A stretch of DNA of 39,586 nt, taken from a virus (Duplodnaviria; Caudoviricetes). Where the stretch lies: positions 1 to 39,586 of IMG/VR virus record IMGVR_UViG_3300032243_000160. One strand, written 5' to 3'. Positions 6,514-34,976 of the stretch are shown piece after piece. The position numbers and the translations under genes are program-made. The notes under the pieces are model-generated. The model was not told the DNA's origin. It saw only the letters and a program-made list of their open reading frames with translations, and did not search any database. The stretch's first letter is position 1; each line of letters opens with the position of its first letter.

Positions 6514-8295
6514 TTATACCGTTCTGCGTTGTGTTATACGAGCAGTACCACGTGCTGCGCCCGTTCCAGTTAAGGTTGAAAGTAATGTTTGTAATTCTGG
6601 CTTCTGCCCTTGAACCATTGGTTGTGCACCTTGTTCAGGTAAAGGAGAGCCTCCCACTGGCGAACCAGGAGCAGCAGGGACAGGTTGCTCGACTGTAGGT
6701 GTTGCGCCAGCAGGAGGATTCTTAGGTGTGAAGACTTCTTGAATTGAGTCTTCTATCGTCTTTCCTTTTTGTCGCAATGAAATAACATCTGCTATTTTGC
6801 GAACAATGTCTGATGGGTCCTGTCCTTGTGTTGCCATTTGTGGAATTGCTTGTGTATATGCTGCAAGTGAACCCAATAGGGAATCACGCATTTTTTCAAT
6901 TTCAATTTTTTCTTGTTCTAGCGTTACGTTAACATTGAATGGTAATTCACGCATAGCCATATCTTTAGATATAAGACCGCCACCTAATGCTTGTAGCATA
7001 AAGATAAGTCCCTGCGCTGGGTTTAATCCAGCCAGCATACCGTAACGTACATCAGCAGAGTAATCACCCTTGATGTCTTTAGACGGTAAATAAGTAATTT
7101 GATATGGAGAACCAGCATCGGTTCCACGAATAGTTTTTTCTACGTTAAATAATTTCTCATCTGTTTCAAAGCAAAAAGAAATAACATCACGTAGTGCAGT
7201 TTGGAAGATAGCCTGTGCAGATTTGATTTGAGTATCAAATGCTCCAAGTAGTGCTTGTACACCCTGTCCAGTGACAACACTTGCATTTACGTTACCTGTT
7301 CGAGATTCAGGATAACGAGCACCAACACGTAGTTCTTCATTAAGAAGTGTAGACTCAGTGAATGCACCTTGTGGTAGTGATAGTTCAACGCGGCGTACGC
7401 CAGCAGGGTTGGATGTGCGGATAACAGCATCTCCACCAAGTTGAAGTTCTTGTACGTCTTGTGGTAAAACAATTGGTGACTGTACTGATTTCTCTGCTGC
7501 TTCCATTGCAAGTAATGCAAATCTGTTGCGAAGCAACTGAATACCAAGTACATCATCAAACTGTCCACGTAATTCACCATCAGGTCCTGGTCGTCTAGCA
7601 ATGATTACGTTCATCTTGCCTAGAGGATTAACTGCTTGTGAAAGCAGCATGTTGTTACGTGATGGTAAATAAAGCACTGATTGGTCTTTATCGTAATAAC
7701 GAATCATTTCAACCATGCCATTTAGTTCTTGCTTATACCCCATCTTACCAAGTAGAGCCATCTCATGTTCAGGGAACTGAGATACTAACTCACCAAGAGT
7801 CATAGAGTATCGTTTAGCAAAAGCAACGCAGCGTCCATAGCGGTCAAATTCGGGATAAGCCCCGACAGGATTTTCTAAGCGGATGCGAGGTTGTTGCTCT
7901 TCTTCATCCAATTCAATAATGAACGGGAGGAAACCATAGGTGATGTACATGTCTGCACCGTTGTACATCTGTACTTGCAAATCAGAAAGGCGGAAGTAGT
8001 TAGACGCAATGCGAGTACGTTTGTCAGCAAATGTACGAGCACGGTCTGATGTTTGATTAACTGCTGAACAGTTAACCGCAGGAAGTGGTGCAATTACTTC
8101 TGCTAAGTCACGGGCAACAATATCAATAAAGTTAGCAACTACGTTCTGGTCAATACCATCTGGAAAGAAGTTAGGGTAAACTTGTGAAATTTTTCCCTGA
8201 CGTACCATTTGGACATCACCATTGCGTTGGTCACGACCATGGGCGCGATAGCGTAGCGTTTGCACGCGTGCGCCAATCTGGTCCATTGTTAGCAT
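6514..8295 (-). CDS. Portal protein (head-tail connector)
   Basis: 593 aa, two genes downstream of terminase. Size and helical C-terminus are typical of podoviral portals. Confidence 0.8.
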   Translation of the reverse strand: MLTMDQIGARVQTLRYRAHGRDQRNGDVQMVRQGKISQVYPNFFPDGIDQNVVANFIDIVARDLAEVIAPLPAVNCSAVNQTSDRARTFADKRTRIASNYFRLSDLQVQMYNGADMYITYGFLPFIIELDEEEQQPRIRLENPVGAYPEFDRYGRCVAFAKRYSMTLGELVSQFPEHEMALLGKMGYKQELNGMVEMIRYYDKDQSVLYLPSRNNMLLSQAVNPLGKMNVIIARRPGPDGELRGQFDDVLGIQLLRNRFALLAMEAAEKSVQSPIVLPQDVQELQLGGDAVIRTSNPAGVRRVELSLPQGAFTESTLLNEELRVGARYPESRTGNVNASVVTGQGVQALLGAFDTQIKSAQAIFQTALRDVISFCFETDEKLFNVEKTIRGTDAGSPYQITYLPSKDIKGDYSADVRYGMLAGLNPAQGLIFMLQALGGGLISKDMAMRELPFNVNVTLEQEKIEIEKMRDSLLGSLAAYTQAIPQMATQGQDPSDIVRKIADVISLRQKGKTIEDSIQEVFTPKNPPAGATPTVEQPVPAAPGSPVGGSPLPEQGAQPMVQGQKPELQTLLSTLTGTGAARGTARITQRRTV

Positions 8296-8567: not shown

Positions 8568-10457
8568 CTATCCGTATATATCTTGCCACTGTTCGTGGAA
8601 GGCTTCATCTAAATTAACTGAACCTCTACGTTCCATCTGAGAACGTGTAGCCCAGCGATTACTTGCGTACTTTGCTGAATTGCTACTTGCTTGCATTAAC
8701 TCACGGATGCGAATAACCGCAAACCATAATGCCATAACTGTATCTGTCTTACCTTTAGTCTCTGGCTTCCATGTTAATAGTTGTTGAGTTAAGGCTTTGA
8801 TTCCTTCACTACCCTCTGATGAGGGGAGTTCAATAATGTTATTGTTTTGAAATTTTCCTTCGCGCTCTGTACCAAAGAGGGTTGACATGGACGCAACTCC
8901 GAAGGAGGTGTCCCATTTGTTCTTGCCTGTAAAGTGAGCATCAAGCCGTACGCCGTGTGCAGCAAGCCAGTTTCGTAGTTCGTCATCTAAGGCATATGCT
9001 TTCTGGTGAGCGTTAATTTCAACTCTAAACTCTTGAGGTTTATACTTGTTTACAAGTTCCTCAATTTGTGCTCTAATTTTTTGAGGTGTTGGTTCTATCA
9101 TGTTGATACAATCAACTACATAAATCTTTCCGTCTGCACGGTTATAGGTTGCTACAACAAATGCAGCGTTACCCGTCATAGCAGGGTCAAAACCAACAAC
9201 AGTATGAGGTTCTACTTGTTGTGGGTGTCCCACGACTCCTGACCGTAGCGCACCTCTCTTGCGTGCCCCGTTAGTGCTTCCTTGTACCAGTAATGGTGGG
9301 AAGATGGAGTCTTCTTGAATGTCTTCTTGTTGATAGACGAGTGCCCATGTTGAGGGTGTAACTTCACTTCGTCTTCTTGATAATGCTGCGCCGTCCCATT
9401 TGGGGTAGTAGCCATTCTCCTGAGGAGTATCATCGTCCCCATCCCACGGGACATCTGACTCTTTCCAAAGTGTAAGCCAATCTTCTTTTTTCTCTGCATA
9501 CTCCAGTACCGCAGGCATCCCCATATAAGTAAAGGGGGTGCGACCACCAGACCAATGCTTAGGATTACGAAGTTCTTTATAAAGGTCATTAGCCGCAATT
9601 CGGGTCCCCACCACTAGCAACTTACCATTCTTACCCAAACGGGTAATAACTTCTTTTTGTAACCAGTCCATCTGCTTTTCCCACTCATGGGCATTAGCAG
9701 TAGTAATACAGTCGTCAAGAATAATCAGGTCAGCACGTGCTCCGTAAATCTGACCACCCATACCTAGTGCTTGGATGGTAGGGTCTTTCTCAGAAGAGTT
9801 ACGAGCCTCGCCCCCAAGATATACCGTATCGGTACGCCAAGTATCCGCGTCCTGTTTCCAACCGCCCTCAGGACCATAAGCGGTCTGTAATTTGAGCCAG
9901 CGGGGATGTGACAAGCGTTGCTTGATTGCGTAGACGAACTCTCTCGCTTTTGTAATTGTTTTAGAAACTACAATGATACGGATGTTCGGGTTAAGGGCGA
10001 TTCTGTAAGTAGAATAGTTTACGGTGATAACCGTACTCTTAGCATGCTCAGGTGGTACATTGACCAACAGGCGATTGTTCTCTCCAGGCTCGTACTTCAT
10101 AGACGGATGCAACCATGACGGTTCGCGCCCTTCCAGTAGGTCTACCCAATCTTGATGATGGGGGAAGACTGTCTGGTCTAAAAATGCTTTTGAAAAATCT
10201 TTAAAGGGCATGGACTCTTTCTCCACACCCATAGCGTCAAAGGATTGCTTTTGTCCCTCATCCTTCGCGGCTTCTAACTTGGAGGCAAACTCAGGGTCAC
10301 GGGTCATCCACTGACGAACCGTATCCGCTTTTTTGCCTACTAATGCCATTGCGGCGGGGATGCTTACCCCACTCTTTACCGCTTCAAGTACTTGCTCTTT
10401 GGCTTGGGCTAGACCCTTAACCTTGAAGTGCTCGTCCCCACTCTTAAACCCAGCCAT
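8568..10457 (-). CDS. terL: Terminase large subunit with N-terminal HTH-like extension
   Basis: Walker A variant PPEHAKST, Walker B GARADLIILDD, coupling motif VVGTR, nuclease motifs GFDPA and DTVMALWFA. ATG 10457 preferred over TTG 10469. Confidence 0.92.
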   Translation of the reverse strand: MAGFKSGDEHFKVKGLAQAKEQVLEAVKSGVSIPAAMALVGKKADTVRQWMTRDPEFASKLEAAKDEGQKQSFDAMGVEKESMPFKDFSKAFLDQTVFPHHQDWVDLLEGREPSWLHPSMKYEPGENNRLLVNVPPEHAKSTVITVNYSTYRIALNPNIRIIVVSKTITKAREFVYAIKQRLSHPRWLKLQTAYGPEGGWKQDADTWRTDTVYLGGEARNSSEKDPTIQALGMGGQIYGARADLIILDDCITTANAHEWEKQMDWLQKEVITRLGKNGKLLVVGTRIAANDLYKELRNPKHWSGGRTPFTYMGMPAVLEYAEKKEDWLTLWKESDVPWDGDDDTPQENGYYPKWDGAALSRRRSEVTPSTWALVYQQEDIQEDSIFPPLLVQGSTNGARKRGALRSGVVGHPQQVEPHTVVGFDPAMTGNAAFVVATYNRADGKIYVVDCINMIEPTPQKIRAQIEELVNKYKPQEFRVEINAHQKAYALDDELRNWLAAHGVRLDAHFTGKNKWDTSFGVASMSTLFGTEREGKFQNNNIIELPSSEGSEGIKALTQQLLTWKPETKGKTDTVMALWFAVIRIRELMQASSNSAKYASNRWATRSQMERRGSVNLDEAFHEQWQDIYG

Positions 10458-10469
10458 TGCGTGTCCCAA

Positions 10470-11327
10470 CTTTTAGACAGACTTTACCCGCCATATAGAC
10501 AGACATCTGTACTACAGTTTGTCACAGTACGAAGAAGACTCTAAAAAGGCTTCTGAGTATATTTTACTGTACATATATACTTAATCCGTTCAAAGTACCT
10601 AAACGAACTATTCTGTGGTAAAAATTTTATTACTTAATAGAAACATATAAGTATCTACCCCCTAGTCACTATACTGACAGAAATATGTAGGTAGAGATAC
10701 AATAGATATTACTAACAGTTATTAACATATAGGGGGTCAAACTGTCTGTTCAGACAGATAGACTGTCCCTACATGTATAGTGTGACCTGTCTGTCACAAT
10801 ACAGTCTGCCCAGCCTTCGGCTAGGGGGCACTGTATATTCCTGTTACTAAATAAATATATTTCTACCTGACGGTAGGGCTGCGCCGCTCTATTGCATTGC
10901 ATGCAAACCCGCAGTCTGCCGACAAATGCTTTACTGATTTCTCTGTCTGTCAGTCCAGCCTTCGTCATGGACTCAGGCTAATCAGGACTGCGCCAGAGAC
11001 GGTGTGTTCGCTCCAAGCGTTACGGTGCACAGCCCCTCCACGCAATACGCTCACCTCACACCACACACAGTCGGACGCACGCCACGGCTCTCACTGGCTA
11101 TCGCCAGTTTCTGTTCGAGCCTACACTCACAGCCTACCTCGCTCTGGCTCGGCTTAACGGCTGCTCGCAAGCGTGCTGAACCTTACACCGCGCTGTCAAA
11201 TCGGCATCAGCCGATTGTCGCCCTTACGTCTGGCTTTTCGCCAGACAGGGCAAGAGTGACAGCGGGATGTCGCGGTATCCCGACAGTATGTGCTGTTGAA
11301 CTACTTAAAAACAAGGAGAGTAAAACA
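10470..11327. promoter_or_regulatory. Major non-coding region between divergent arms (promoters; probable packaging site/origin/physical ends)
   Basis: No credible ORF. AT-rich tract at about 10560-10730, repeated GACAGAC/CTGTCTGT motifs, then a GC-rich hairpin cluster. Confidence 0.7.
10799..11285. other. Cluster of nested inverted repeats (structured ssDNA or ncRNA candidate)
   Basis: Stems at 10799-10836, 10863-10876, 10892-10906, 10940-10999, 11086-11121 and a three-way junction at 11191-11264. Confidence 0.6.
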
Positions 11328-11780
11328 ATGTACGATTATACACAAGATAACCTATCAATCGCTACCTCTTGCGCTACTTGCCTCGCCCTCGACACTACGT
11401 GTGACGAGTGCTTGGAAGTCAGCGAAGCAAGAGTGTCTAACCTAGCGCATGAGTTAGTAGATGAAGGCTCAATGCAATACCCTCGGCTCTGGGTCATAAA
11501 CCGACCAGAGCCTTCAGGTCATGATTGGACAGAATCAGAGACCGTGAGTTACATACAACGTGATAAGCAAGGCAATATCACAGGCATTAAATACCGTCAT
11601 GAGTACACAGACCCAACGGTATTTATTACAGACGGTGGGGAACTTGACAACCTATGGGAGTTAGATGACGAGACACAGTTGGCACGTGAAACAGAGTGCC
11701 AATGGTGCCATATACTCACTCCCAAGTTATATAATGATTGTCAATCATGTGACCTACCACTAGAAAGTAATGTAAGATAA
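11328..11780 (+). CDS. Early hypothetical protein with Cys-pair (Zn-binding) motifs
   Basis: RBS ACAAGGAGAG then ATG 11328. CATC, CDEC, CQWC and CQSC motifs. Confidence 0.8.
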   Translation: MYDYTQDNLSIATSCATCLALDTTCDECLEVSEARVSNLAHELVDEGSMQYPRLWVINRPEPSGHDWTESETVSYIQRDKQGNITGIKYRHEYTDPTVFITDGGELDNLWELDDETQLARETECQWCHILTPKLYNDCQSCDLPLESNVR

Positions 11781-11793
11781 CAGTATAAGTTAC

Positions 11794-11825
11794 AGGTAGC
11801 CCTGTTGCCTACGGCAGGGCTACCT
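11794..11825. promoter_or_regulatory. Strong intergenic hairpin without U-tract
   Basis: AGGTAGCCCT-gtt-GCC-tac-GGC-AGGGCTACCT. Confidence 0.6.
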
Positions 11826-11850
11826 TCCACTAAATAGAAAAGAGAGAGTA

Positions 11851-12204
11851 ATGAACCTAGTAAATGAAGTAACTATCACAGGAACACTTAAGAACATCAA
11901 GACATATAGTGGTTCAAAAGGAACCCTAGTGACTGGTTGGTTAAGTCAACGTGATACATCCCGTCTTTCAGACGGAACAGCAGACCGTCCTGTATTCGTA
12001 GCAGGAATCAACATCGTTGGGTTAGACGGAGACGTAGTAACTGACCTAACAAACTTAGATACAGCACGTCAGGGTAGCGAGGAGACAATGCTCGTAACTC
12101 TGAAAGGTCGTTTAGTTACACGCTTTGACCGCCGTTCTAACGTGGCTGAGGCTGACCGTAACAAGCCATCTATTCAGTTGGAAGTATTCGAAGTACATAA
12201 CTAA
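11851..12204 (+). CDS. Single-stranded DNA-binding protein-like (OB fold, no acidic tail)
   Basis: N-terminal NEVTITGTL, later VTLKGRLVT and C-terminal IQLEV strands resemble SSB/PriB. Confidence 0.6.
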   Translation: MNLVNEVTITGTLKNIKTYSGSKGTLVTGWLSQRDTSRLSDGTADRPVFVAGINIVGLDGDVVTDLTNLDTARQGSEETMLVTLKGRLVTRFDRRSNVAEADRNKPSIQLEVFEVHN

Positions 12205-12209
12205 AACAG

Positions 12210-12249
12210 TAGGGAGGTGGGGGGAAACCCTCATCTCCCTATTTTTTTT
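12210..12249 (+). terminator. Rho-independent terminator
   Basis: TAGGGAGGTGGGGG-GAAA-CCCTCATCTCCCTA followed by an 8-T run. Confidence 0.9.
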
Positions 12250-12320
12250 ATGTTAGGATATATCGTAACCTCTACGGAAAACTGCAAGTCCATCTACAAA
12301 TACAAAAGGGAGAAGCAATC

Positions 12321-12500
12321 ATGTACATATCAATCATAGATATAGCAATAGCAACTCTGGCTCTCGCAGTCAGTACAATTCTAGTTCTAATCACAGCGTA
12401 TGCTAATCGCGGATTGCTGCACGAAAACAGAATGATTCGTCAGCGTCTACGTATGAAGACAGACCACTGCAATAACTACCATAGTCCACGTCCATTCTAA
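12321..12500 (+). CDS. Small membrane protein (59 aa; not in ORF track)
   Basis: RBS AAGGGAGA. MYISIIDIAIATLALAVSTILVLITAYAN... has one hydrophobic segment and a basic tail. Confidence 0.75.
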   Translation: MYISIIDIAIATLALAVSTILVLITAYANRGLLHENRMIRQRLRMKTDHCNNYHSPRPF

Positions 12501-12512
12501 GGAGAGAATGTT

Positions 12513-12707
12513 ATGTCTAAGTATAATGTTATAGTTCCATTAGTAGGGCAAGACGGCAACGCCTTTGCCATAATGGGACGAGTAAGTTCTGCATTAAAAG
12601 ATGCAGGTGCTAACGAAGATGAAGTCAATCAATACATGAGAGAGTCTATGTCAGGAGACTACGATAACCTACTGCGGGTAGCCGCAGCATGGGTAGAAGT
12701 GGAGTAA
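12513..12707 (+). CDS. Conserved small phage protein (G-x-DGNAF-x-IMG...SGDYDNLL type)
   Basis: Recognisable motif of a widespread uncharacterised phage family. RBS AAGGAGAG. Confidence 0.8.
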   Translation: MSKYNVIVPLVGQDGNAFAIMGRVSSALKDAGANEDEVNQYMRESMSGDYDNLLRVAAAWVEVE

Positions 12708-12710
12708 GCA

Positions 12711-12974
12711 ATGACCGCACCAAGCATAATGTGTGACGTTCTATTTATGGCTGACCATTTTATTATGGTCACCACTATTGAAACAGTCTATAGTCCAGAC
12801 ACACGGGACGTAGAGAAAGCAGCATGGGATAGATTAAGTGCAGAGTATGGCATTGATTGGGTAGGTATGACCAAGCAATTCATCAAGCAAGTATCTATCG
12901 AAGTAGTAACAGACAAGCCTGAACCTACAGTTAATGATATAAACAAATCAATTGAAGAGGATAAAGGAGAGTAA
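12711..12974 (+). CDS. Hypothetical protein
   Basis: RBS GGAG, operon packing. Confidence 0.75.
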   Translation: MTAPSIMCDVLFMADHFIMVTTIETVYSPDTRDVEKAAWDRLSAEYGIDWVGMTKQFIKQVSIEVVTDKPEPTVNDINKSIEEDKGE

Positions 12975-12975
12975 C

Positions 12976-13332
12976 ATGGGACTAGACATGTGGTTGTATG
13001 AGAAACAAGTACATGAAGTAGCATACTGGCGCAAGGCTAACGCTATTCATAGTTGGATTATCAATCATGTTAATGCAGTAGATGATTGCACACCAATAGA
13101 ACTACGCAAGGAAGACTTGATTAAACTAAGAGATACTTGTGTTGCTGTATTAGAAGTTAAAACAGCAGACTTTGCACAAGAAATGCTACCACCAGCATCA
13201 GGATTCTTCTTTGGTAGCACTGAAATAGATGAATGGTATTGGAAAGATGTAGAAGAAACAGTTACTACATTAAGTAAGATTATAGATGAGTCTGTTGAAG
13301 ATGCATTTTTTGAGTATCAGGCTAGTTGGTAA
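12976..13332 (+). CDS. Conserved phage hypothetical protein (MGLDM...YWRKANAIH...GFFFG type)
   Basis: Motifs of a common phage family. RBS AAGGAGAG before ATG 12976. Confidence 0.85.
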   Translation: MGLDMWLYEKQVHEVAYWRKANAIHSWIINHVNAVDDCTPIELRKEDLIKLRDTCVAVLEVKTADFAQEMLPPASGFFFGSTEIDEWYWKDVEETVTTLSKIIDESVEDAFFEYQASW

Positions 13333-13335
13333 GCC

Positions 13336-13440
13336 ATGAGTAGACCAATAGGTAGCGCATGTTGTAATAATGATGTAGATTTTTACAAAGATAAATACAT
13401 TTGTTGTGAATGCAAAAGAGAATGCGAGACAATAGAATGA
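13336..13440 (+). CDS. Cys-rich microprotein (34 aa; not in ORF track)
   Basis: MSRPIGSACCNNDVDFYKDKYICCECKRECETIE. ATGA overlap with the next ORF. Confidence 0.6.
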   Translation: MSRPIGSACCNNDVDFYKDKYICCECKRECETIE

Positions 13441-13568
13441 GTGAACCAAGATTAGAAGATGACGTAGCGTTCTTTGATTCATGTGACCAGTGTGGTAACT
13501 TCATCCATACATGTGAGTGCGAATCGGAAGACCCTGATAGATTGCATGATGAACTTAACGAAGGATAA
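13437..13568 (+). CDS. Acidic Zn-binding microprotein (43 aa; not in ORF track)
   Basis: MSEPRLEDDVAFFDSCDQCGNFIHTCECESEDPDRLHDELNEG. Translationally coupled. Confidence 0.65.
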   Translation: MSEPRLEDDVAFFDSCDQCGNFIHTCECESEDPDRLHDELNEG

Positions 13569-13577
13569 GGAGCAGCA

Positions 13578-14006
13578 ATGCGTCAACCAGTTAAGAAAGT
13601 TATATCAGTATCTGTTAGTATAATACTTACAGTTACTACCTTAATCAACATACCAATCAAAGCAATAACACACCATAAGTATATACCTAAATGTGTGGGT
13701 GAACCACCTATTCAGTGGACACCTGACCTCATTAAAGTATATGCACGTGGGCTAATGACAATGGATTATCCACAATGGAATCATAATGAATGGATAGCAT
13801 TAGACAATCTCTGGACACAAGAGAGTCATTGGAATCACAAGGCTACCAATAAAAAGTCAACTGCTTACGGAGTAGCGCAAGTTCTTAACACAAAAGTTGG
13901 GACTCCAGCCCCGCAACAAGTTGCGCGGGGGCTGTCGTATATCAAACATAGATACGGCAAGCCATCAATTGCATGGGCACATGCACAAAGACATGGATGG
14001 TACTAA
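13578..14006 (+). CDS. Lytic transglycosylase (SLT/lysozyme-like) with N-terminal signal/anchor
   Basis: LWTQESHWN (catalytic Glu-Ser), STAYGVAQ, GLSYIKHRYG...GWY. Hydrophobic N-terminus. Confidence 0.85.
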   Translation: MRQPVKKVISVSVSIILTVTTLINIPIKAITHHKYIPKCVGEPPIQWTPDLIKVYARGLMTMDYPQWNHNEWIALDNLWTQESHWNHKATNKKSTAYGVAQVLNTKVGTPAPQQVARGLSYIKHRYGKPSIAWAHAQRHGWY

Positions 14007-14161
14007 TGAAGACATACTATAAAGTTACTTGCGACATACAAGTTGAAGCAAGTGATGATGACACTGCTATCTGGCTGTTACAAGATGCATGCCAGTTATA
14101 TCCAGGCTTGAAGTTCGAGCGTTGGATGTTCGTAGAAAAGGATGAGAGAGAATATGACTAA
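14006..14161 (+). CDS. Small hypothetical protein
   Basis: TAATG coupling at 14006. Confidence 0.65.
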   Translation: MKTYYKVTCDIQVEASDDDTAIWLLQDACQLYPGLKFERWMFVEKDEREYD

Positions 14162-14570
14162 AGCACTAACAGTTAAAGTTCCAACCGCTAAAGTAATCAA
14201 AGCATTAGATAATAAATTGATTGCATTAACAAAAGAAAAAGAATCAATACCTACATTAGAAGCAAAGTATAATGTAGTGCATGAAAAATGGTTAAATGAT
14301 GTTAAAAAAATAGCATTGGCTAACCTATCTAAAGGTATTAACATGAGAGTTAATGTAATATCATGGAAAGATGTAGTAAATATTGACTACGATATACCAA
14401 CAGATAAGATTAAAATACCTGAAGAACCAACTAAAGATTGGGTTCACATGGCTGACTGGGAATACAAAAATGCAATAGAAGAAATTACTAATGCACTTAA
14501 CATTCTACGCATGACAGATGAGCCATTAGTTAATACTTCTACTATGAAATCCATAGCCAAGTATCTATAA
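14154..14570 (+). CDS. Hypothetical protein
   Basis: GAGAGAG RBS-like tract, ATG 14154. Confidence 0.8.
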   Translation: MTKALTVKVPTAKVIKALDNKLIALTKEKESIPTLEAKYNVVHEKWLNDVKKIALANLSKGINMRVNVISWKDVVNIDYDIPTDKIKIPEEPTKDWVHMADWEYKNAIEEITNALNILRMTDEPLVNTSTMKSIAKYL

Positions 14571-14848
14571 TGGAACACGCATTACAACATAAATGTTCTT
14601 GCTTACCATGTAAGCAAGATAGAGTAAGACAATGGGTTGGTAAGTTACTTAATGCTGGTATTCCTGCTGATAATATCATGATGGAAATTAATCAGTATGG
14701 TGGTAAAGTAATTATCTATTCAGGTAATGAAGATAAAAGTTGCCATTATTTGCACAAAGAAAAATGGTGTTATCAGTTTAATGATAAGTCATTTGATTGG
14801 GCAATGACATGGTGGCATGCACATGCAAGACAAATACAATATGCATAA
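14570..14848 (+). CDS. Hypothetical protein (Cys/His/Trp-rich)
   Basis: TAATG coupling. Confidence 0.7.
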   Translation: MEHALQHKCSCLPCKQDRVRQWVGKLLNAGIPADNIMMEINQYGGKVIIYSGNEDKSCHYLHKEKWCYQFNDKSFDWAMTWWHAHARQIQYA

Positions 14849-14857
14849 AGGAGAGCA

Positions 14858-15856
14858 ATGACAACAGCACTAGTAGACAACAGACGCAACGCTTGGAAGC
14901 GTGGCGGTACAGCAGTTGAAGGTACATCTGCACGTGAGGTAGCGCAACAGGCTGGACTTGACTGGGAAGTTAAGACAGTACCATTGCAAGGCTATGTTGA
15001 AAGTTCAGTTAACAACTATGAATCTGTTACTGATTACTATGAAGTACCTAACAAGCAAGGCGTACTTAAGTTAGACAAAGACCACAACAACTCCATCATT
15101 GGTGTAGTTGGTAGCAAGTATAAGATTGTCCAGAACATGGAAGTCTTTGGTGCATTAGACTCTCTGATTGAATCAGGTGAGGCACGCTACAGTGCAGCAG
15201 GTGAGTACAATGGTGGTGCTAATGTATGGATGCTTATGGAATTACCTACTGGTATAACAGTAACAGATGACCCACATGCAGCATACCTATTAGCCAAGAC
15301 ATCACATGATGGTTCATGTTCAGTCATCATACGACCTATCATTGAGCGTATCTTTTGTGCTAATCAAATAGGTAAACTTATACATGGCAAGATAAAAAAG
15401 CCACTCATGTATAAGATGAAACACACAACCAACTCTGAGTTATCAGTGTCGGACATACGTAACATCACAACCATTACTTATCAGGCTATTGAAGAGTATG
15501 AATTGATGGCTGACCAATTGCTTAAGCGTGAAGTAGATAAGCAACAAGTAATGAGTATCTTTAAGAAAGTATGGGCATTGCCACCTGAAGTAGAAGGTGT
15601 ATCATATGACCTGCTATCTAAAGGACAGCGCAAACAATTAACTATGGCAGTAGATGCACGTGCAAAAGCATGGGACATCTATAGTCAATCACCTACACAA
15701 GAGAACATCAGAGGCACAGCCTTTGGTGTATGGCAATCAGTCATTGAGTATGCTGATTACTATGCAGCAGGTGGAGATGACAAGCGTGCATTGGCTACCA
15801 TTAGTGGTAGTAATGACCGCATTAAGAACAAAGCACTGTCTATTCTGACAGTATAA
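14858..15856 (+). CDS. DUF932 family protein (phage/plasmid TIGR03299-like)
   Basis: AGLDWEV, GVVGSKYKIVQN, TSHDGS, RIFCANQ, KHT and GTAFGVWQSVIEYAD motifs. Confidence 0.88.
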   Translation: MTTALVDNRRNAWKRGGTAVEGTSAREVAQQAGLDWEVKTVPLQGYVESSVNNYESVTDYYEVPNKQGVLKLDKDHNNSIIGVVGSKYKIVQNMEVFGALDSLIESGEARYSAAGEYNGGANVWMLMELPTGITVTDDPHAAYLLAKTSHDGSCSVIIRPIIERIFCANQIGKLIHGKIKKPLMYKMKHTTNSELSVSDIRNITTITYQAIEEYELMADQLLKREVDKQQVMSIFKKVWALPPEVEGVSYDLLSKGQRKQLTMAVDARAKAWDIYSQSPTQENIRGTAFGVWQSVIEYADYYAAGGDDKRALATISGSNDRIKNKALSILTV

Positions 15857-15859
15857 ATT

Positions 15860-15993
15860 TAGCATAGTGAACCAGCGTAAGGGCAACCGAGATGCAGGTA
15901 GTTTATGCTATACGCACATCTTATATAGTTATATCCTTAAACTATACAAGGGACGTTTCACTGGGTTGCTCCGCCAGTGGCGAACACGGAGTA
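15860..15993 (+). ncRNA. Candidate structured intergenic RNA (two hairpins plus H-type pseudoknot)
   Basis: Stem 15860-15910 capped by a GCAA tetraloop. Hairpin 15920-15950. Pseudoknot CACTGG/CCAGTG plus TGCTCCG/CGGAGTA. Confidence 0.5.
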
Positions 15994-16016
15994 CACACAA
16001 ACAACGAGAGGGAAAC

Positions 16017-16454
16017 ATGAACACAATCACAATCAACACAAGTAACGAAGATGGTACTGTACAATCAGCAATTACATACACTGAAGTAGAAGTTCTACAT
16101 TTCAGAAAGAGAGCACAGGAAATAGATGCTATCCAACAAGTCAACGACAATCAGCGCAAAGAAATCCGTGACTTACGTAATGCTGTCCGTGATTTCTTTA
16201 GTGAAGGTGAATGGGATAATGGTGAACAGACAGTCAACAAGCCTGAAGTCAATGACTTACTCGAACGTATCGGCAGCAACAAACTTACAACCAAGTACAG
16301 AGGAACCTTTACTATCACAGGTTCATTCAATGTTGAAGTAGAAGATGAAGATGAGATTCAAAGTATCATTGAAGATAATACTGACGTGTCAAACTATTCT
16401 GCTGACATGGAAGTAGAAGGTATTGAAACCTTTGACATTGAAGAAGATAACTAA
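16017..16454 (+). CDS. Acidic hypothetical protein with coiled coil
   Basis: RBS GAGAGGG before ATG 16017. The upstream in-frame extension is not protein-like. Confidence 0.8.
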   Translation: MNTITINTSNEDGTVQSAITYTEVEVLHFRKRAQEIDAIQQVNDNQRKEIRDLRNAVRDFFSEGEWDNGEQTVNKPEVNDLLERIGSNKLTTKYRGTFTITGSFNVEVEDEDEIQSIIEDNTDVSNYSADMEVEGIETFDIEEDN

Positions 16455-16825
16455 TGTCATCAGCCTACGTACCATACAACGGCACGGCTGGCTGGTCAGG
16501 TACTGACACCAGTAAAGAACGTGCTCTATTTAATCTACGTACAGGTAAGGAATATAATAAGCAACAAAAAGCGTTAGCACTATTAAAAGATAATGCTAAT
16601 GGTCTTACTTGGAAAGAGTTTGCTGAACAGACAGACGTACATCACGGCACTGCAAGTGGCGTGCTATCAGTATTGCACAAGACAGGTGCAATCATACGTA
16701 GTACACGTGTGCGTAATGGATGCAAAGTTTATTACGGCATACAATACATAGATGAGATTGGTAATGAATCATATAGAAAGAAAGAAAAACTTTGTCCGCA
16801 CTGCGGCAATGACATCAACGCATAG
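16454..16825 (+). CDS. Winged-HTH DNA-binding protein with C-terminal CPHCG
   Basis: GLTWKEFAEQTDVHHGTASGVLSVLHKTG helix-turn-helix pattern. Confidence 0.65.
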   Translation: MSSAYVPYNGTAGWSGTDTSKERALFNLRTGKEYNKQQKALALLKDNANGLTWKEFAEQTDVHHGTASGVLSVLHKTGAIIRSTRVRNGCKVYYGIQYIDEIGNESYRKKEKLCPHCGNDINA

Positions 16826-16836
16826 TCCGTCAACTA

Positions 16837-16845
16837 TGCTATGAT
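16837..16845 (+). promoter_or_regulatory. Extended -10 promoter (TGn-TATGAT) for the replication operon
   Basis: TGCTATGAT in the intergenic gap, 6 nt upstream of a long hairpin. Confidence 0.6.
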
Positions 16846-16851
16846 GGGACA

Positions 16852-16902
16852 ACTAGATGGGCGGTAGGTTTTGGCTCTCTCCTTGTCCTACCCCCGTCTA
16901 GT
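16852..16902 (+). ncRNA. Candidate sRNA / 5'-leader hairpin with anti-Shine-Dalgarno loop
   Basis: 16-bp stem (one bulge, one G-U) enclosing the loop TTTTGGCTCTCTCCTTGT. Confidence 0.55.
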
Positions 16903-16920
16903 ATCTAACAAAGGAGAAGC

Positions 16921-17700
16921 ATGTCGGAACTAGAAATACCAAGAGACAGATACGGGAGACCAATGGTTGTGCCACCTAAAGGTGGTAAGCCAGTACCATA
17001 CACACGTACTACTACAGTTGCAGGTTCATTAGATGATGGCACTGCATTAGTAGCATGGAAATTACGTATGGCAGCAGCAGGTTTAACCTTACGTCCTGAC
17101 TTACTGTTGGCTGCATCAGCAAACAGAGATAACAAGTTAGAGATGGACAAGTTAGTTGAAGATGCAATGGAAGCAGCAGGTGCAACCAAGCAAGCAACTA
17201 TAGGTACAGCCATACATACACTGACAGAAAAGTATGACAGAGGTGAAGACCTCGGTGTCATACCAGATGATTATGTTGCAGACATACAAGCATACGCAGA
17301 TGCAACTAAAAACTTTGAGAACATAAACATAGAACAGTTTTGCGTACTAGACAAGTATAAAATAGCAGGCACGCCTGACCGTATCGTAAGATACAAAGGC
17401 GAGTTATTTATCTCTGACTTAAAAACTGGTAGTATTTCCTACCCAAATAAAATTGCTATGCAGTTAGCAGTGTACGCGCACGGCTTGCCGTACGACCCTG
17501 CTACGGCAACCCGTTCGACTTGGGGAGATGTTAACCAAGACAAAGGAATCATTGTCCACTTACCAGCAGGTGGTGGCAAATGTGAACTACACTTTGTTGA
17601 CATCAAACAAGGTTGGAAAGGTATAGAACTAGCAATGAAAGTACGTAACTTCAGAGATACAAAGAAGTCACTAGTCACACCAATTAAGGAGAACATATGA
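16921..17700 (+). CDS. PD-(D/E)XK exonuclease (RecB/Cas4-like phage nuclease)
   Basis: GTAIH, IEQF, AGTPDRI, DLKTG and QLAVYA motifs. Confidence 0.88.
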   Translation: MSELEIPRDRYGRPMVVPPKGGKPVPYTRTTTVAGSLDDGTALVAWKLRMAAAGLTLRPDLLLAASANRDNKLEMDKLVEDAMEAAGATKQATIGTAIHTLTEKYDRGEDLGVIPDDYVADIQAYADATKNFENINIEQFCVLDKYKIAGTPDRIVRYKGELFISDLKTGSISYPNKIAMQLAVYAHGLPYDPATATRSTWGDVNQDKGIIVHLPAGGGKCELHFVDIKQGWKGIELAMKVRNFRDTKKSLVTPIKENI

Positions 17701-19108: not shown

Positions 19109-19470
19109 GTAGCGCAGCCAAAGCCAAAGGCTCAGGAGCCGAACGAGATGTAGTTAAGTATCTTAAAGAATGGTTTCCTTATGTTGATAGGCGATTGGCT
19201 GGTGCAACATTAGATAAAGGTGACATCTCAGGTATACCTGGAGTTACAATAGAAATTAAAAACCACGCCAAGATGAACTTGGCTGGATGGGTAGAAGAAT
19301 TGTTAGTTGAAATGGCTAACGATAATGCATGGACAGGTGTAGTGTGGCACAAGCGGGTGGGTAGGGGAAGTCCAGCCGATTGGTATTGCACTATGCCTGG
19401 TCATGTATATGTAGATTTACTACAACGAGCATTGATTGGTGGACATACAGATGGACAAGCCAAGCATTGA
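19105..19470 (+). CDS. Holliday junction resolvase-like PD-(D/E)XK endonuclease
   Basis: KAKGSGAER...GDI...IEIKN (Hjc-type). Confidence 0.8.
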   Translation: MSSAAKAKGSGAERDVVKYLKEWFPYVDRRLAGATLDKGDISGIPGVTIEIKNHAKMNLAGWVEELLVEMANDNAWTGVVWHKRVGRGSPADWYCTMPGHVYVDLLQRALIGGHTDGQAKH

Positions 19471-19828
19471 AGAATATCTACAGTTCATTGGAGCAAATAC
19501 TCCAGCAGTAGGTAGCGGATGGCGCAAGATGAAGTGTCCATTTCATAGTGATAGTCATGCAAGTGCAGCAGTAAACTATGATAAGAATGCTTTCATATGT
19601 CATGGTTGTGGTGTTAAAGGTGATACGTTTAGTTTAATTATGTACAAAGAAGGGGGAGACTATCGTGAGGCTGTCAAGTTCGCAACGTCAGTTCTTACTA
19701 CAGGCAACACAGAGATACGCAGCAAGCATAGAAGTAGCGAGCGAGTATCTTTTAAACCGAAGTCTGTTGGTAGAAGAAGCACGCATCTTTCATCTGGGGG
19801 TAGTCGTAGACCCAGTTCCAGGGCATGA
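19451..19828 (+). CDS. DNA primase zinc-binding (CHC2) subunit
   Basis: CPFHSD...FICHGCGVKGD motif. Confidence 0.88.
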   Translation: MDKPSIEEYLQFIGANTPAVGSGWRKMKCPFHSDSHASAAVNYDKNAFICHGCGVKGDTFSLIMYKEGGDYREAVKFATSVLTTGNTEIRSKHRSSERVSFKPKSVGRRSTHLSSGGSRRPSSRA

Positions 19829-20300
19829 AGCATACAAAGGTAGACTTGCAATACCATACATAACACCATCAGGTGTAGTTGATATTAGATTTCGTGGTAT
19901 GCATGGCGAAGACCCTAAGTATCTAGGATTAGTAGGCAGCAAAACAACTATGTTTAATACACAGGCTTGTTTTGTTGCAGATAAATATATCTGTGTCACC
20001 GAAGGTGAATTTGATTGTATTATGATGTCAGTTAAAACTCTTCATCCAACCATTGGTATTCCTGGTGCTAACAATTGGAAACCACACTATAATAAAATAC
20101 TTGATGACTTTGAAATTGTAATTGTATTAGCAGATGGTGATGCAGCAGGACTAGAGTTCGGTAAGAAAGTTAGCCGAGAGTTAGGCAATGTTAATATCAT
20201 TAGCATGCCTGACGGTGAAGATGTAAACAGTATGATGACTAAGGAAGGGAGCAGATGGATAGATGAGCGAATCAGAGAATGCATTACCATTGGACAGTAG
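19665..20300 (+). CDS. DNA primase catalytic (Toprim) subunit
   Basis: RLAIPY, PKY, VTEGEFD and DGDAAG motifs. Own RBS AAGGGGGAG before GTG. Confidence 0.9.
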   Translation: MRLSSSQRQFLLQATQRYAASIEVASEYLLNRSLLVEEARIFHLGVVVDPVPGHEAYKGRLAIPYITPSGVVDIRFRGMHGEDPKYLGLVGSKTTMFNTQACFVADKYICVTEGEFDCIMMSVKTLHPTIGIPGANNWKPHYNKILDDFEIVIVLADGDAAGLEFGKKVSRELGNVNIISMPDGEDVNSMMTKEGSRWIDERIRECITIGQ

Positions 20301-29335: not shown

Positions 29336-31630
29336 TTAGAGAGCGCCCATGAGATTGAGCGTTTGAAAATCTTTAATACTTCCAAATGCACCAGAAGCAG
29401 ATAATGTAATATCTCCTGATGCAGTTACTGTTCCAGTTAATATTGGTGCTGTCAGAGTTAGACCAGCAATTGTTGTTACAGTTGCACCCGAGCCAATAGA
29501 TGTTGAACCTAGTGTAGGAGCAGAGTAACCAGCAACAGTTGCCCATTGGGTACCAGTTGCTGTTGATTGCAAGTATTGACCATTAGTGCCAGATGAAGCA
29601 CCCGCTGTTAGTGTACCTGTAAGGGTAAGGTTTGAAATAGTTGGTGCTGTTCCAAATACTAATGCACCGCTGCCAGTCTCATCAGATATAACTCCAGCAA
29701 GTTCTGCCGAAGTTGTAGCAGCATGAACAGATAGTTTATCTGTAGTTACTACTAATGTTTTAGATGTAGGAATAGTAGTTAAATTAATAGTCAAGCCATT
29801 TACGTTGGCATAAGTAGTACCAGAAGCAATAGGTGTACTACCAAGAGTAGGTGCTGTATATGCAGTGTATGTTGAAATTGCTGACCAAGCAGAACCAGTC
29901 CAAGCATACATAGTATTAAGTGATGAGTTCCAGTATGTAGCACCAACAAGCAGTGTTCCACCTAGATTGTCAACAGTAGGAGCAGAAGACTTAGAACCCA
30001 GATACCTAGCATCATATGTCGTATAAGTTGTAGCAGCAGATGATGCGCTAGTTGCTGCAGATGTAGCACTAGTTGCTGCTGCTGTAGCACTGGCTGCTGC
30101 ACTAGTAGCACTAGTAGCGGCGGCTGTTGCTGAGGCTGCAGCCGAAGTAGCAGAAGTAGCAGCAGCGGTTTGACTAGTCAGTGCTGAAGAAGCAGAGGTA
30201 CTAGCAGCAGTTGCAGAAACGTTTGCAGAGGTTGCTGATGTAGATGCAGCGGTTGCACTGGCTGCCGCACTAGTTGCGCTTGTAGCGGCTGCTGTAGCAC
30301 TTGTAGCAGAACTTGAGGCTGAAGTAGCAGCAGCAGAAGTAGAACCTGCTATAGCGGTAGCAGAGGCAGCAGCAGAAGTTGCGCTTGTGGCTGCACTGCT
30401 AGCACTAGTGGCTGCTGCTGTAGCAGACGCTGCAGCAGAAGTAGCCGAAGTAGCGGCAGCATTTTGACTAGTTAAAGCATTAGATGCATATGTAGCAATA
30501 CTTGCTACTGATGCGGCTGCGGTTGTAGCACTGGCAGCAGCAGAAGTAGCAGAAGTTGCTGCTGAGTTGGCTGAGGTTACGGCAGCAGCAGCCTGTGTAG
30601 TAGCCGTAGAAGCCGAGTTAGAGGCTGTAGTGGCGCTTGCAGCGGCACTGGTGGCACTTGTAGCAGCAGCCGTAGCCGAGGCTGCAGCACTGGTAGCAGA
30701 TGTTGACGCCGCGTTTTGGCTTGCCAGCGCATTGCTTGCATAAGTTGCTATACTGGCTACAGAAGCAGCAGCAGTAGTAGCAGAAGCAGCAGAAGAAGTA
30801 GCACTAGTAGCAGCAGCGGTGGCAGAAGCCGCCGCTGATGTAGCAGATGTAGCAGCAGCAGTTGCTGATGTTGCCGCTGATGCGGCACTAGTTGCTGCAG
30901 CAGTAGCCTGAGCAGTTTGCAAAACAAGAATTGCATCTACATAAGATTTAGGTGTAGCAGATGATGTAGACATACCCGCAGATGAAAGACCAGTAATAAC
31001 TGGTGTTCCATTAATAATAGGACTAGTAATTGTTTTATTAGTTAATGTTGTAGCAGAGTCAAGAAGGTCAATTGTACCTGATGTATTAGGTAAAGTAATT
31101 GTATTATCTTGAGTAGGGTCTACTACTGTAAGCAATGTTTCAAAGGCATCAGCAGTTGCGCCTTCAAAAGTAATACCTGCATCATTTTCAAGAGTAGAAG
31201 TAAGTGTGGGTGCAACAAGAGTTTTGTTATAAAGAGTTTGAGAATCTTGAGTTCCAACTACAGAAGATGTAGATGCAATTCCATGCACACCAACAGCAGT
31301 TTCAATATGTGTATTAGGTTCACGAAGGTCACGTCCAATAACCATGTGTCGAACAATTGCACCAGCAGAATGGTCTTGTGCGGTTGAACCATCTATATTA
31401 CGAGAAACAGTAAATACAGTACCAGATACGCCAGTGACATCTAAAATTTCTTCAAGTGCTGTATCTGGGTCAATGACTATAGTAAAAGTAACGCCACCAG
31501 TAATTGAAGCACCAGCAATACCACCAAGGATTGCACTTGAACTTGCTACTGTTATGCTACTTGCACCAGAAGTAACAGAACTGGTGATAGTTGTTTGTTG
31601 AGAACGAGACGTATATTTACGAGTTGTCAT
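29336..31630 (-). CDS. Tail fibre protein with long Ala/Ser/Thr repeat stalk
   Basis: (AATSATSAAASATA)n region, YDARYLGSK motif and LTNKT repeats. Confidence 0.78.
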   Translation of the reverse strand: MTTRKYTSRSQQTTITSSVTSGASSITVASSSAILGGIAGASITGGVTFTIVIDPDTALEEILDVTGVSGTVFTVSRNIDGSTAQDHSAGAIVRHMVIGRDLREPNTHIETAVGVHGIASTSSVVGTQDSQTLYNKTLVAPTLTSTLENDAGITFEGATADAFETLLTVVDPTQDNTITLPNTSGTIDLLDSATTLTNKTITSPIINGTPVITGLSSAGMSTSSATPKSYVDAILVLQTAQATAAATSAASAATSATAAATSATSAAASATAAATSATSSAASATTAAASVASIATYASNALASQNAASTSATSAAASATAAATSATSAAASATTASNSASTATTQAAAAVTSANSAATSATSAAASATTAAASVASIATYASNALTSQNAAATSATSAAASATAAATSASSAATSATSAAASATAIAGSTSAAATSASSSATSATAAATSATSAAASATAASTSATSANVSATAASTSASSALTSQTAAATSATSAAASATAAATSATSAAASATAAATSATSAATSASSAATTYTTYDARYLGSKSSAPTVDNLGGTLLVGATYWNSSLNTMYAWTGSAWSAISTYTAYTAPTLGSTPIASGTTYANVNGLTINLTTIPTSKTLVVTTDKLSVHAATTSAELAGVISDETGSGALVFGTAPTISNLTLTGTLTAGASSGTNGQYLQSTATGTQWATVAGYSAPTLGSTSIGSGATVTTIAGLTLTAPILTGTVTASGDITLSASGAFGSIKDFQTLNLMGAL
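30030..30910 (-). repeat. Coding heptad-like Ala/Ser/Thr repeats
   Basis: AATSATS/AAASATA units with an internal duplication of ASVASIATYASNAL-x-SQNAA. Boundaries approximate. Confidence 0.85.
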
Positions 31631-31638
31631 TTATTTAC

Positions 31639-32535
31639 CTATCGGCTATAGTGGACGCGGGTTGGATATTGAATCTTTTGCTTCAGCGATTCTTCCTCAA
31701 GCCGCTGTTGATACAATGCTTGCAGTCCCTTTGTAACATTTGTGCCCGTGCCGTATGGACGCTTAGCGTCAAACTCATCTGCTGCTGCGGAGGTAATAGA
31801 AATACGGGCTGGGTCAATATAAGAAGATAAACGCCATGCTGCACCATAAATAATTACATCTCTCATAGATGTTGGTAAACCAGTTGTGGTTTCAAAATCA
31901 TCTGTAAGGTTGTTCATTACTGTAGGTAGTTTTGCATAAACAATATTTATAGTACGACCAGGTAATACGTTGTCATAGATTGATACAGTACGTCCTGATG
32001 TAAATGATGGTGAGTAAGCAATAGGGTCCCAACGCCATTGGCGTATAGGTAGCCATTCTTTTGTTGGTCCAACTGATTGCCATGCCATTGAAAGAATTTG
32101 AATTGCTGGGGCTGGTATTTCATAAGTAGTACGGCTAGCAAGGAATGATACTCCTGTAGAACCTACGGCAAATACTTTAGGGTATACAGCGTTGACTGTA
32201 TCATTGACTGCACGCTTAATAGCAGAACGTGGATATGTTGGAGTAATAATTACTTTAGCATTAGCATCATGCGCTGTTGCTGTAGTTGCATTATAGCCAC
32301 GACCAAATGGAGCAACAATAAGAGTATTAGATTGACGGTCATATGCATCAACAAGAATCATCTCATCATCAATTTCAATAACGCCTTTACCAATGTTTTC
32401 AGTAGAGGCTACATAAAGAGTAAGACCACTAGTAGTTGCTGCTTGTGTTAAATAAGTAACACGGTCTTGACGATAAGTAAAACCTGAAAGGTCTAACTGT
32501 ACGTCATTCATAATATCTGTTAATGTTGTTGCCAT
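31639..32535 (-). CDS. Head-tail adaptor / tail tubular protein A-like with inserted beta domain
   Basis: IKRAVNDTV...LPTSMRDVIIYGAAWRL pattern of adaptor proteins, plus position. Confidence 0.6.
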   Translation of the reverse strand: MATTLTDIMNDVQLDLSGFTYRQDRVTYLTQAATTSGLTLYVASTENIGKGVIEIDDEMILVDAYDRQSNTLIVAPFGRGYNATTATAHDANAKVIITPTYPRSAIKRAVNDTVNAVYPKVFAVGSTGVSFLASRTTYEIPAPAIQILSMAWQSVGPTKEWLPIRQWRWDPIAYSPSFTSGRTVSIYDNVLPGRTINIVYAKLPTVMNNLTDDFETTTGLPTSMRDVIIYGAAWRLSSYIDPARISITSAAADEFDAKRPYGTGTNVTKGLQALYQQRLEEESLKQKIQYPTRVHYSR

Positions 32536-32807
32536 TATGATGCAACCTCTCGTAATGCAGTTACGGCTTCTAAGCCTGTTGTACTTGCCAGTAAGTTACA
32601 AATTTTATTTAAGCCAACGTATTTGTCAGCAGTTGCATTACCATACTTTTTATTAAGAGCACCAACAGTGCCTACGCCTGTTGTGCCTGCCCATTTATTA
32701 GCAGCACCTTGCTCTGCAAGGTATGTTGTTTTTGCTGGATAAGTACCGCCATTAGCAAGGCGATTTAATTCATCAGTTAAAGTGCTACCTTCTCTACCGT
32801 ATGTCAT
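32535..32807 (-). CDS. Hypothetical virion protein
   Basis: Coupled at both ends. Confidence 0.75.
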   Translation of the reverse strand: MTYGREGSTLTDELNRLANGGTYPAKTTYLAEQGAANKWAGTTGVGTVGALNKKYGNATADKYVGLNKICNLLASTTGLEAVTALREVAS

Positions 32808-34482: not shown

Positions 34483-34976
34483 TAGATTGCTCCTACTTCT
34501 TTCATGACCTCTGCGGTCTTTGGTGTTATGTATTTGGCTTCGGGCATTTTCCCAGCATCATAAGGTTTATTAATAACCTCTGATGCTTCAAGTGCTTTTT
34601 CTATAGCAGTCCTTGATGTGCCAGCAGGTTGTACACCTTGAGCACGGGCATCTCTATAGTAAGCCAATTCTTTATCCCACTTCTTTTGAGTGGTTCCACT
34701 AGCAATAATATTTCCTGATGCATCACCAGTTGCTAATTGTAATCCTTTTGCTTTACAACCAAAACAAAGACAATCAATATCATTTTCTTTATGGTCTGGG
34801 TTAGATTTAATAACTCCAAAACCATCCCATTGTTCAACTGAAGTTGCATTACAATTAGTGCAACCCCAAAGAACTACTACAGGTAACATATTTTTTTTGT
34901 CTTTAGTTATACGGTATTCATCTTTAAGAACTTTACCTATATGTCCATCTGCTTTACAATCATGTCCCTTTAACAT
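34482..34976 (-). CDS. Hypothetical protein with Cys motifs
   Basis: CTNC and CLCFGC. Coupled. Confidence 0.75.
   Translation of the reverse strand: MLKGHDCKADGHIGKVLKDEYRITKDKKNMLPVVVLWGCTNCNATSVEQWDGFGVIKSNPDHKENDIDCLCFGCKAKGLQLATGDASGNIIASGTTQKKWDKELAYYRDARAQGVQPAGTSRTAIEKALEASEVINKPYDAGKMPEAKYITPKTAEVMKEVGAI

Follow-up and report, generated by a model that had tools for sequence, protein, structure and literature searches.

A conserved leader hairpin that mirrors early ribosome-binding sites: a candidate trans-acting anti-RBS RNA in an actinobacterial phage

Directly before the replication operon of a phage genome lies a hairpin whose loop is complementary to the ribosome-binding sites (RBSs) of genes upstream of it, and the question raised by this locus is whether the loop serves its own operon or acts in trans on those other genes. 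The window (the whole stretch of DNA analyzed, 39,586 nt) carries terminal repeats and is a complete virus record; it belongs to an actinobacterial phage, from a lake. PHROG matches place terminase, portal and capsid on the minus strand. The plus strand holds an upstream block of small genes, mostly without known function (11328-16825), and, after 16825, exonuclease, helicase, resolvase, primase, sigma factor, glycosyltransferase and WhiB. The labels early, middle and late are taken from gene content and position alone. The primase (19436-20300) is split over two overlapping frames, and genes 58 and 57 of the Streptomyces phage Kumquat are annotated likewise. Between the divergent terminase and early blocks, ca. 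800 nt (10500-11310) contain no evident gene, consist of an AT-rich and a GC-rich half, and form several small hairpins.

Phages of Ca. Planktophila with 39-kb genomes carry sigma factor, glycosyltransferase and WhiB genes (Kavagutti et al., PMC10202952), and the terminase of the window is 63% identical to the Planktophila-phage terminases of that study. This identity and the three common genes make an acI actinobacterium the likely host, as judged from sequence. Comparison of WhiB homologues gave no host assignment, a search of prokaryote genomes for relatives found none, and the protein queries P0181 and P0092 recovered no loci. The features around the hairpin are as follows.

16454..16825, plus strand: gene of a helix-turn-helix (HTH) protein, directly 5' of the promoter (PHROG/Pfam annotation)
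16813..16846, no strand assigned: inverted repeat over the -10 and the HTH stop codon (two-sided changes at 3 of 6 pairs)
16837..16845, plus strand: extended -10 (TGnTANNNT), predicted promoter, start predicted near 16851-52 (conservation in contexts)
16852..16902, plus strand: RNA hairpin of 16 bp, predicted 5' end of the replication-operon transcript (fold, conservation, G-U bias)
16869..16886, plus strand: loop of 18 nt, with a U-rich 5' part and the seed at 16877-86 (sequence, covariation)
16911..16917, plus strand: own RBS, AAGGAGA, of the exonuclease gene; 7-nt loop match without the tag base (sequence, pairing)
16921..17700, plus strand: PD-(D/E)XK exonuclease, gene 1 of the replication operon, followed by helicase, resolvase and primase (PHROGs, Pfam)

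The first-pass annotation had described an extended -10 followed by a long stem. Both were recovered: the -10 reads TGCTATGAT, and the arms 16852-68 and 16887-902 form 16 pairs with one bulged C and one G-U, exactly as proposed. The linker between the stem and AAGGAGA, put there at about 5 nt, measures 8 nt. Among hairpins of at least 10 pairs and -12 kcal/mol, with both strands of the window scanned, this is the only one that has CTCC in its loop. Folded alone, the region yielded a z-score of -2.3 against shuffles (6/200), and so did the minus strand; as the isolated fold beats shuffles just modestly, the case for the hairpin rests on conservation.

Related loci were therefore gathered with the exonuclease and three homologues, at 60-97% identity. 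A hairpin with at least 8 pairs and the loop core TCTC(C/T)T was present in 227 of the 237 loci with sufficient upstream sequence; the ten loci without a scored hairpin comprise three with a U variant, four with another loop, and one each that precedes an inserted gene, is truncated, or differs. TCTCCT itself was found in the leaders of 334/392 family loci (some contigs being counted twice). The stem sequences are entirely different between clades, and within the clade of the window (32 sequences) 8 of 10 consensus pairs display two-sided changes, compensatory covariation that upholds the stem as first drawn. Across 96 distinct hairpins, 107 G-U pairs were counted on the plus strand vs 5 on the minus strand. 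This excess points to a plus-strand RNA, and a minus-strand decoy was rejected on the same count. An intrinsic terminator was also rejected: the hairpin is absent from the 20 terminator-like sites of the window, and it has an 18-nt loop and no U run. The same terminator scan of the window detected no such site directly after the hairpin that would release a free RNA of 50-70 nt. Rfam 15, at the gathering threshold, returned no match in the window or in six related loci (best local E 4.1).

Comparison also places the hairpin at a near-constant distance from a promoter-like element. Of 151 distinct contexts, 145 have TGnTANNNT before the stem, compared to 4.8 expected by shuffling, mostly with a gap of 5-6 nt to the stem base, and on this ground the hairpin is predicted to form the 5' end of the transcript. 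One metatranscriptome run contained six contigs of low-identity relatives, one of them ending within the 5' arm; contigs cannot show a start, and this end was given no weight. When another gene is inserted, the hairpin keeps its place at the operon start; it tracks the operon and not the exonuclease, and a role as guide for the adjacent exonuclease was rejected, since the neighboring gene varies among relatives. Exonuclease relatives at ~50% identity (L251, L253, L264) have no hairpin at the exonuclease gene. Two leaders depart from the common form: L201 lacks the 5' half of the hairpin, with a junction to the pseudoknot described below, and L205 has a different, very long hairpin in place of that of the family.

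The RBSs that pair with the loop in the window, and one terminator-like site among them, are given below; the Shine-Dalgarno (SD) extension that the loop mirrors is here called the tag, and energies are in kcal/mol.

11311..11320, plus strand: first gene of the upstream block, tagged RBS; 10-nt match, -16.0
11838..11848, plus strand: gene 11851, tagged RBS; -13.5
12208..12243, plus strand: intrinsic-terminator-like site (terminator scan)
12304..12313, plus strand: gene 12321, RBS, G-U variant; -13.4
12499..12507, plus strand: gene 12513, tagged RBS; -15.4
12964..12971, plus strand: gene 12976, tagged RBS; -12.6
14144..14150, plus strand: gene 14154, tagged RBS; -13.8
14848..14855, plus strand: DUF932 gene (Pfam), tagged RBS; -12.6
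16006..16012, plus strand: gene 16017, RBS; -13.6
17686..17692, plus strand: second operon gene, RBS, core match only; -10.7

Loop bases 16877-86 are the exact complement of the first early RBS (11311-20), and every further RBS match that the first-pass annotation had listed was found where it had been placed. The site at 12208-43 would put the first two tagged genes, the best target included, on a transcript separate from the hairpin. The canonical capsid RBS, AAGGAGGTG, set apart in that annotation from the early class, is indeed present; it nonetheless pairs with the loop at -13.3 kcal/mol, a value that falls among those of the tagged early sites (-12.6 to -16.0 kcal/mol). A second conserved RNA lies at 15959-15992 (plus strand), before an A-rich leader. 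It has a short stem and a loop complementary to a site after the invariant GCGAACAC, is modeled as an H-type pseudoknot, and in relatives its loop and partner co-vary (at least five variants); it has no Rfam match, and its role can be guessed at as a barrier to 5' exonucleases or as something like a riboswitch.

If the loop recognizes the tag, loop variants should be followed by RBS variants, and this was observed: the base 5' of UCUCCU in the loop (16877 in the window, the specificity base) predicts the base after AGGAGA (+1). Tallied over distinct AGGAGA sites of the upstream block for each loop class, +1 was T in 134/145 sites with loop A and C in 69/98 with loop G. With loop C, that of the clade of the window, +1 was G in 59 and A in 54 of 150, a loose tag. 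With loop U it was A at 7/7 listed GGAGA sites of L186-188. Seven loci with a CUCUCUUU loop, counted separately, provided 7 upstream sites, too few to inform the comparison. These counts include kin, which share loop and tag alike. In L011, a sister of L001, the loop and 4/5 sites have switched together. In loci gathered after the rule was set, it held where the loop kept UCUCC, and a second tag position emerged, with T at +2 in 72/152 sites for loop AG vs 5/61 for loop TG. On a tree of 129 exonucleases there were five real loop changes, of which four were matched, including L011/L098 in the clade of the window, and that of L270 was not; a sixth (L569, G-to-T) was a search-pattern artefact and was excluded. 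An independent-pairs test on the first tree gave p 0.5, a test that cannot reach significance with just two pairs. A four-base score (+1 to +4) did not cleanly pick the own loops, since A-rich spacers dominate it.

The tag was also compared between early and late genes, in 21 near-complete genomes and with a crude gene caller. The cognate base follows AGGAGA in 58/80 early sites (27/27, 17/26 and 14/27) vs 2/34 late ones (2/7, 0/9 and 0/18). Mean loop-RBS energies ranged from -9.8 to -10.5 kcal/mol in early genes and from -7.4 to -8.2 kcal/mol in late ones, whereas pairing with a 16S-like tail hardly differed between the two (-7.4, -7.0). In 20 of the 21 genomes, the loop that pairs best was of the class which that genome itself carries. 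The core was present at 80/251 early starts, under half. As for the candidate host, the 16S tail is identical in 60/62 loci matched by an acI probe, and the tag departs from its complement at the position where the loop does, as had been noted at first. AGGAGA precedes 17 of 787 called genes of Planktophila LanE-43 (in 800 kb of its 1.43-Mb genome), and early RBSs are by comparison the more complementary ones; 12% of the candidate-host starts reach -12 with the window loop.

Some relatives do not obey the rule. The early matches expected for an anti-start-like loop were not found in the 35 loci that carry one, nor in L443 (3/143 early starts). Non-matching loops keep the position and the stem type of the hairpin and mirror a start-codon region instead (L213, L216, L221, L223, the 35 loci and L443). 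In L441/442 both the loop and the RBSs have left the GGAGA type, a partial fit. Taken together, the covariation strongly implies that loop and tag pair.

Cultured phages with the same layout were predicted before their sequences were examined, and the groups in which they were found may be convergent.

E7 (L288), ~31630-31690, plus strand: anti-tag hairpin (fold, loop complement)
F5 (L289), ~32680-32740, minus strand: anti-tag hairpin (fold, loop complement)
Streptomyces BF phages, 37700-37760, minus strand (L290), and about 7000-7090 (L291-L293): anti-tag hairpins, with a small hairpin before (fold)
K1 mycobacteriophages, 1611-1742 (L334), 34800-34930 (L242) and 8580-8700 (L243): reverse-SAS hairpin, after a second long hairpin

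A homologue of the exonuclease is absent from the Planktophila phages E7 and F5, which nevertheless carry the hairpin element with another tag. In E7, six starts on one strand bear GACAGGAGA, and the long hairpin whose loop complements it is on the opposite strand, an arrangement which requires action in trans; this hairpin stands directly before a tagged RBS, and in E7 and F5 a free fold pairs part of the loop. In Kumquat (terminase 44%), RBSs of the GGG(G)AGAGAG type were found in the early block, and a 22-pair hairpin with a complementary loop at its end. Pairing of -15.9 or better is reached by 8/11 early-block genes vs 3/51 others, and the next gene pairs at -9.5. The hairpin region of Kumquat matches 29 records, and three further BF phages that were examined agree.

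In Cluster K phages of mycobacteria, non-structural genes are described as carrying a phage-specific SD extension, the start-associated sequence (SAS), of unknown role (PMC3203893, PMC11373665), and a single reverse SAS is reported in four K1 phages (Pope et al., PMC3203893). The K1 region matched 135 records, of which seven were folded, and the reverse SAS was found in a hairpin loop of 10-11 nt in Anaya, Angelica, Adephagia, LilPharaoh and Peanam. In Ekdilam the loop is changed and SAS is not. Keshu has SAS and no such loop at the homologous place, and Pixie and TM4, read over their last 11 kb and first 3 kb, showed no such loop. The Adephagia loop mirrors SAS, and its hairpin occupies the gap between genes 92 and 93, the apparent start of late transcription by RNA-seq (PMC11373665). 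The 13-nt SAS consensus is absent before the starts of the window, which have AAGGAGAG-type sites instead.

The reading that we favor, with a probability of roughly 0.7 on sequence grounds, is that of a leader RNA acting in trans as the repressor of a regulon of tagged early genes. The new replication-operon transcript would start at the stem base and expose the loop at once; the open loop would bind, in trans, a private tag made up of AGGAGA and one or two bases specific to the clade, and a helix of 7-11 bp over the SD of tagged mRNAs would block 30S loading and turn early translation off. Untagged, translationally coupled genes would be silenced via their tagged neighbors, and late and host genes, being without the tag, would mostly escape. 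The hairpin may act within the mRNA or after being cut free. The HTH protein is a candidate regulator of the promoter, and the inverted repeat at 16813..16846 may be an operator, or else an upstream RNA hairpin. The inverted repeat shows no strand bias and a z-score below -2 in just 36/145 contexts; over the promoters of loop-G clades it has other sequences, and in loop-A clades it is weak. A weaker pairing with the operon's own RBS (16911..16917), a possible feedback site, would add a feedback. In some loop-G leaders (L189, L192, L224) the full tag follows right after the stem and ~10 nt before the start, and another SD-like motif stands between tag and start.

The first-pass annotation had left the choice between such a multi-target RNA and a conformational switch on the exonuclease RBS. 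A conserved loop, covarying stems, loops that track the RBS class, and late and candidate-host RBSs that are less complementary all support the former. The locus shares with trans-acting anti-RBS base-pairing RNAs an unpaired seed complementary to distant RBSs, as well as covariation of seed and target, the latter with few independent events. Four other explanations were weighed against it.

The first, which we consider unlikely, is that the loop guides a complex of protein and RNA in which a host or phage nuclease cleaves the tagged mRNAs, an RNA-guided counterpart of RegB, with the adjacent copy of the site freeing the hairpin. The full tag adjoins the stem in 16/19 loop-G cases, and neither the ~10-nt distance of that tag from the start nor the second SD-like motif is needed by a plain RBS; in addition, table 1 of PMC11373665 lists gp39 of Adephagia with an Hfq-like predicted fold. 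A constant partner gene would be expected and was not seen, as the gene after the hairpin is not the same in L069, E7/F5, BF and K phages, and the sequence of the stem varies freely.

Covariation carries no information on the sign of the effect, and the loop might instead replace the 16S tail or shield tagged sites, allowing translation of the tagged genes and not of host messages. A tag that departs from the 16S complement at the same place as the loop would suit such a positive role, as would a host-like promoter that could fire at once and the core or tag before the first operon genes. We regard it as quite improbable, since a helix that covers the SD and extends in the direction of the start codon is expected to compete with the 16S tail, as established for anti-SD RNAs such as c4 in the account of PMC12197685, and since in Adephagia the late transcript, at whose start the loop lies, follows expression of the tagged genes.

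There is little to recommend a pseudoknot or switch in cis, in which the loop would pair with the RBS directly after the stem and control the first gene only. At least 7 contiguous pairs with the own leader are possible in 147/151 contexts, as for any AAGGAG; own-site variants retain pairing through G-U, and the match is full in loop-G clades and in E7. Linkers of 1-8 nt look too short, on geometry, for stems of 12-17 pairs. The own RBS carries the tag base in 0/28 cases of the loop-A clade, although the upstream genes have it, and own sites in BF phages pair at -9.5 vs -16 to -19 for early genes. Such a switch would also leave the covariation with distant RBSs unexplained, and the hairpin that stays at the operon start past an inserted gene speaks against it. 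Least probable of all is a protein that reads the tag on DNA or RNA, the loop being an extra reverse copy and the stem just stabilizing the 5' end: relatives with non-matching loops do retain the stem, and a pyrimidine loop could bind protein, but the reverse copy is single and always unpaired in a plus-strand RNA stem, the tags sit at SD distance from starts, and both sides show G-U-compatible variants.

The trans-acting reading can be extended to a broader proposal, to which we give slightly better than even odds: actinobacterial phages would time infection by a programmable RNA code, consisting of a private RBS tag on the genes to be turned off and an anti-tag loop on the next leader, such that the onset of each stage silences the one before. 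Paired changes of loop and tag would rewrite the code, which would be common to phages of freshwater bacteria, Streptomyces and Mycobacterium and would account for the SAS of Cluster K. The role of SAS, open since 2011 and called unknown in 2024 (PMC11373665), would now have a named candidate partner, which can be tested directly; for these phages, a method of mutagenesis in M. smegmatis is established. The proposal would also provide a sequence rule for locating the early regulons of uncultured phages that infect the most abundant freshwater bacteria, and, for use in actinobacteria, a repressor of compact design.

Among the closest known systems, SAS is similar in layout: like the tag described here it is an SD extension, with a reverse copy in a hairpin loop of Anaya, Angelica and Adephagia. 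It is 13 nt long and near-invariant, whereas the tag is of 7-8 nt and clade-specific, and its loop stands at the start of the late transcript and not of the replication operon; the two are compared by layout, not by homology. The SAS sections of PMC3203893 and PMC11373665 give no RNA partner. Searches of literature listings in an open-licence library yielded no description of a phage anti-tag RNA for an early regulon.

The c4 RNA of P1/P7 and sar of P22 are phage RNAs whose loops, as predicted here, pair in trans near an RBS; they block translation, with a specificity that differs between related phages (PMC12197685). According to the same source they have one target, the antirepressor mRNA, in temperate phages, whereas here many targets share a tag read by a single leader loop; in the window there was no Rfam match and no antirepressor among the PHROG annotations of 55 proteins. 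The Cuckoo/RSs0680/ar14 RNAs of alphaproteobacteria resemble the window family in combining variable stems with a fixed anti-SD-like loop, and are described as bacterial RNAs with 2-4 hairpins and a generic anti-SD loop, CCUCCUCCC (PMC4615179). The window has one hairpin with the loop core CUCUCCUU, vs 2-4 adjacent hairpins each with CCUCCUCCC, and is a complete virus record with WhiB, not an alphaproteobacterial genome. RegB of T4 is an endoribonuclease that inactivates early mRNAs through their SD class and so moves infection on; it is a protein that cuts GGAG/U with the help of S1 (PMC9409239), in contrast to the specificity by base pairing predicted here. The window RNA would be like c4 and the anti-SD sRNAs in mode and like RegB in its job, and falls within none of these families. 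If the favored reading is true, the phage would carry an RNA-only switch from the early to the later part of lytic growth, a job for which T4 uses a protein nuclease.
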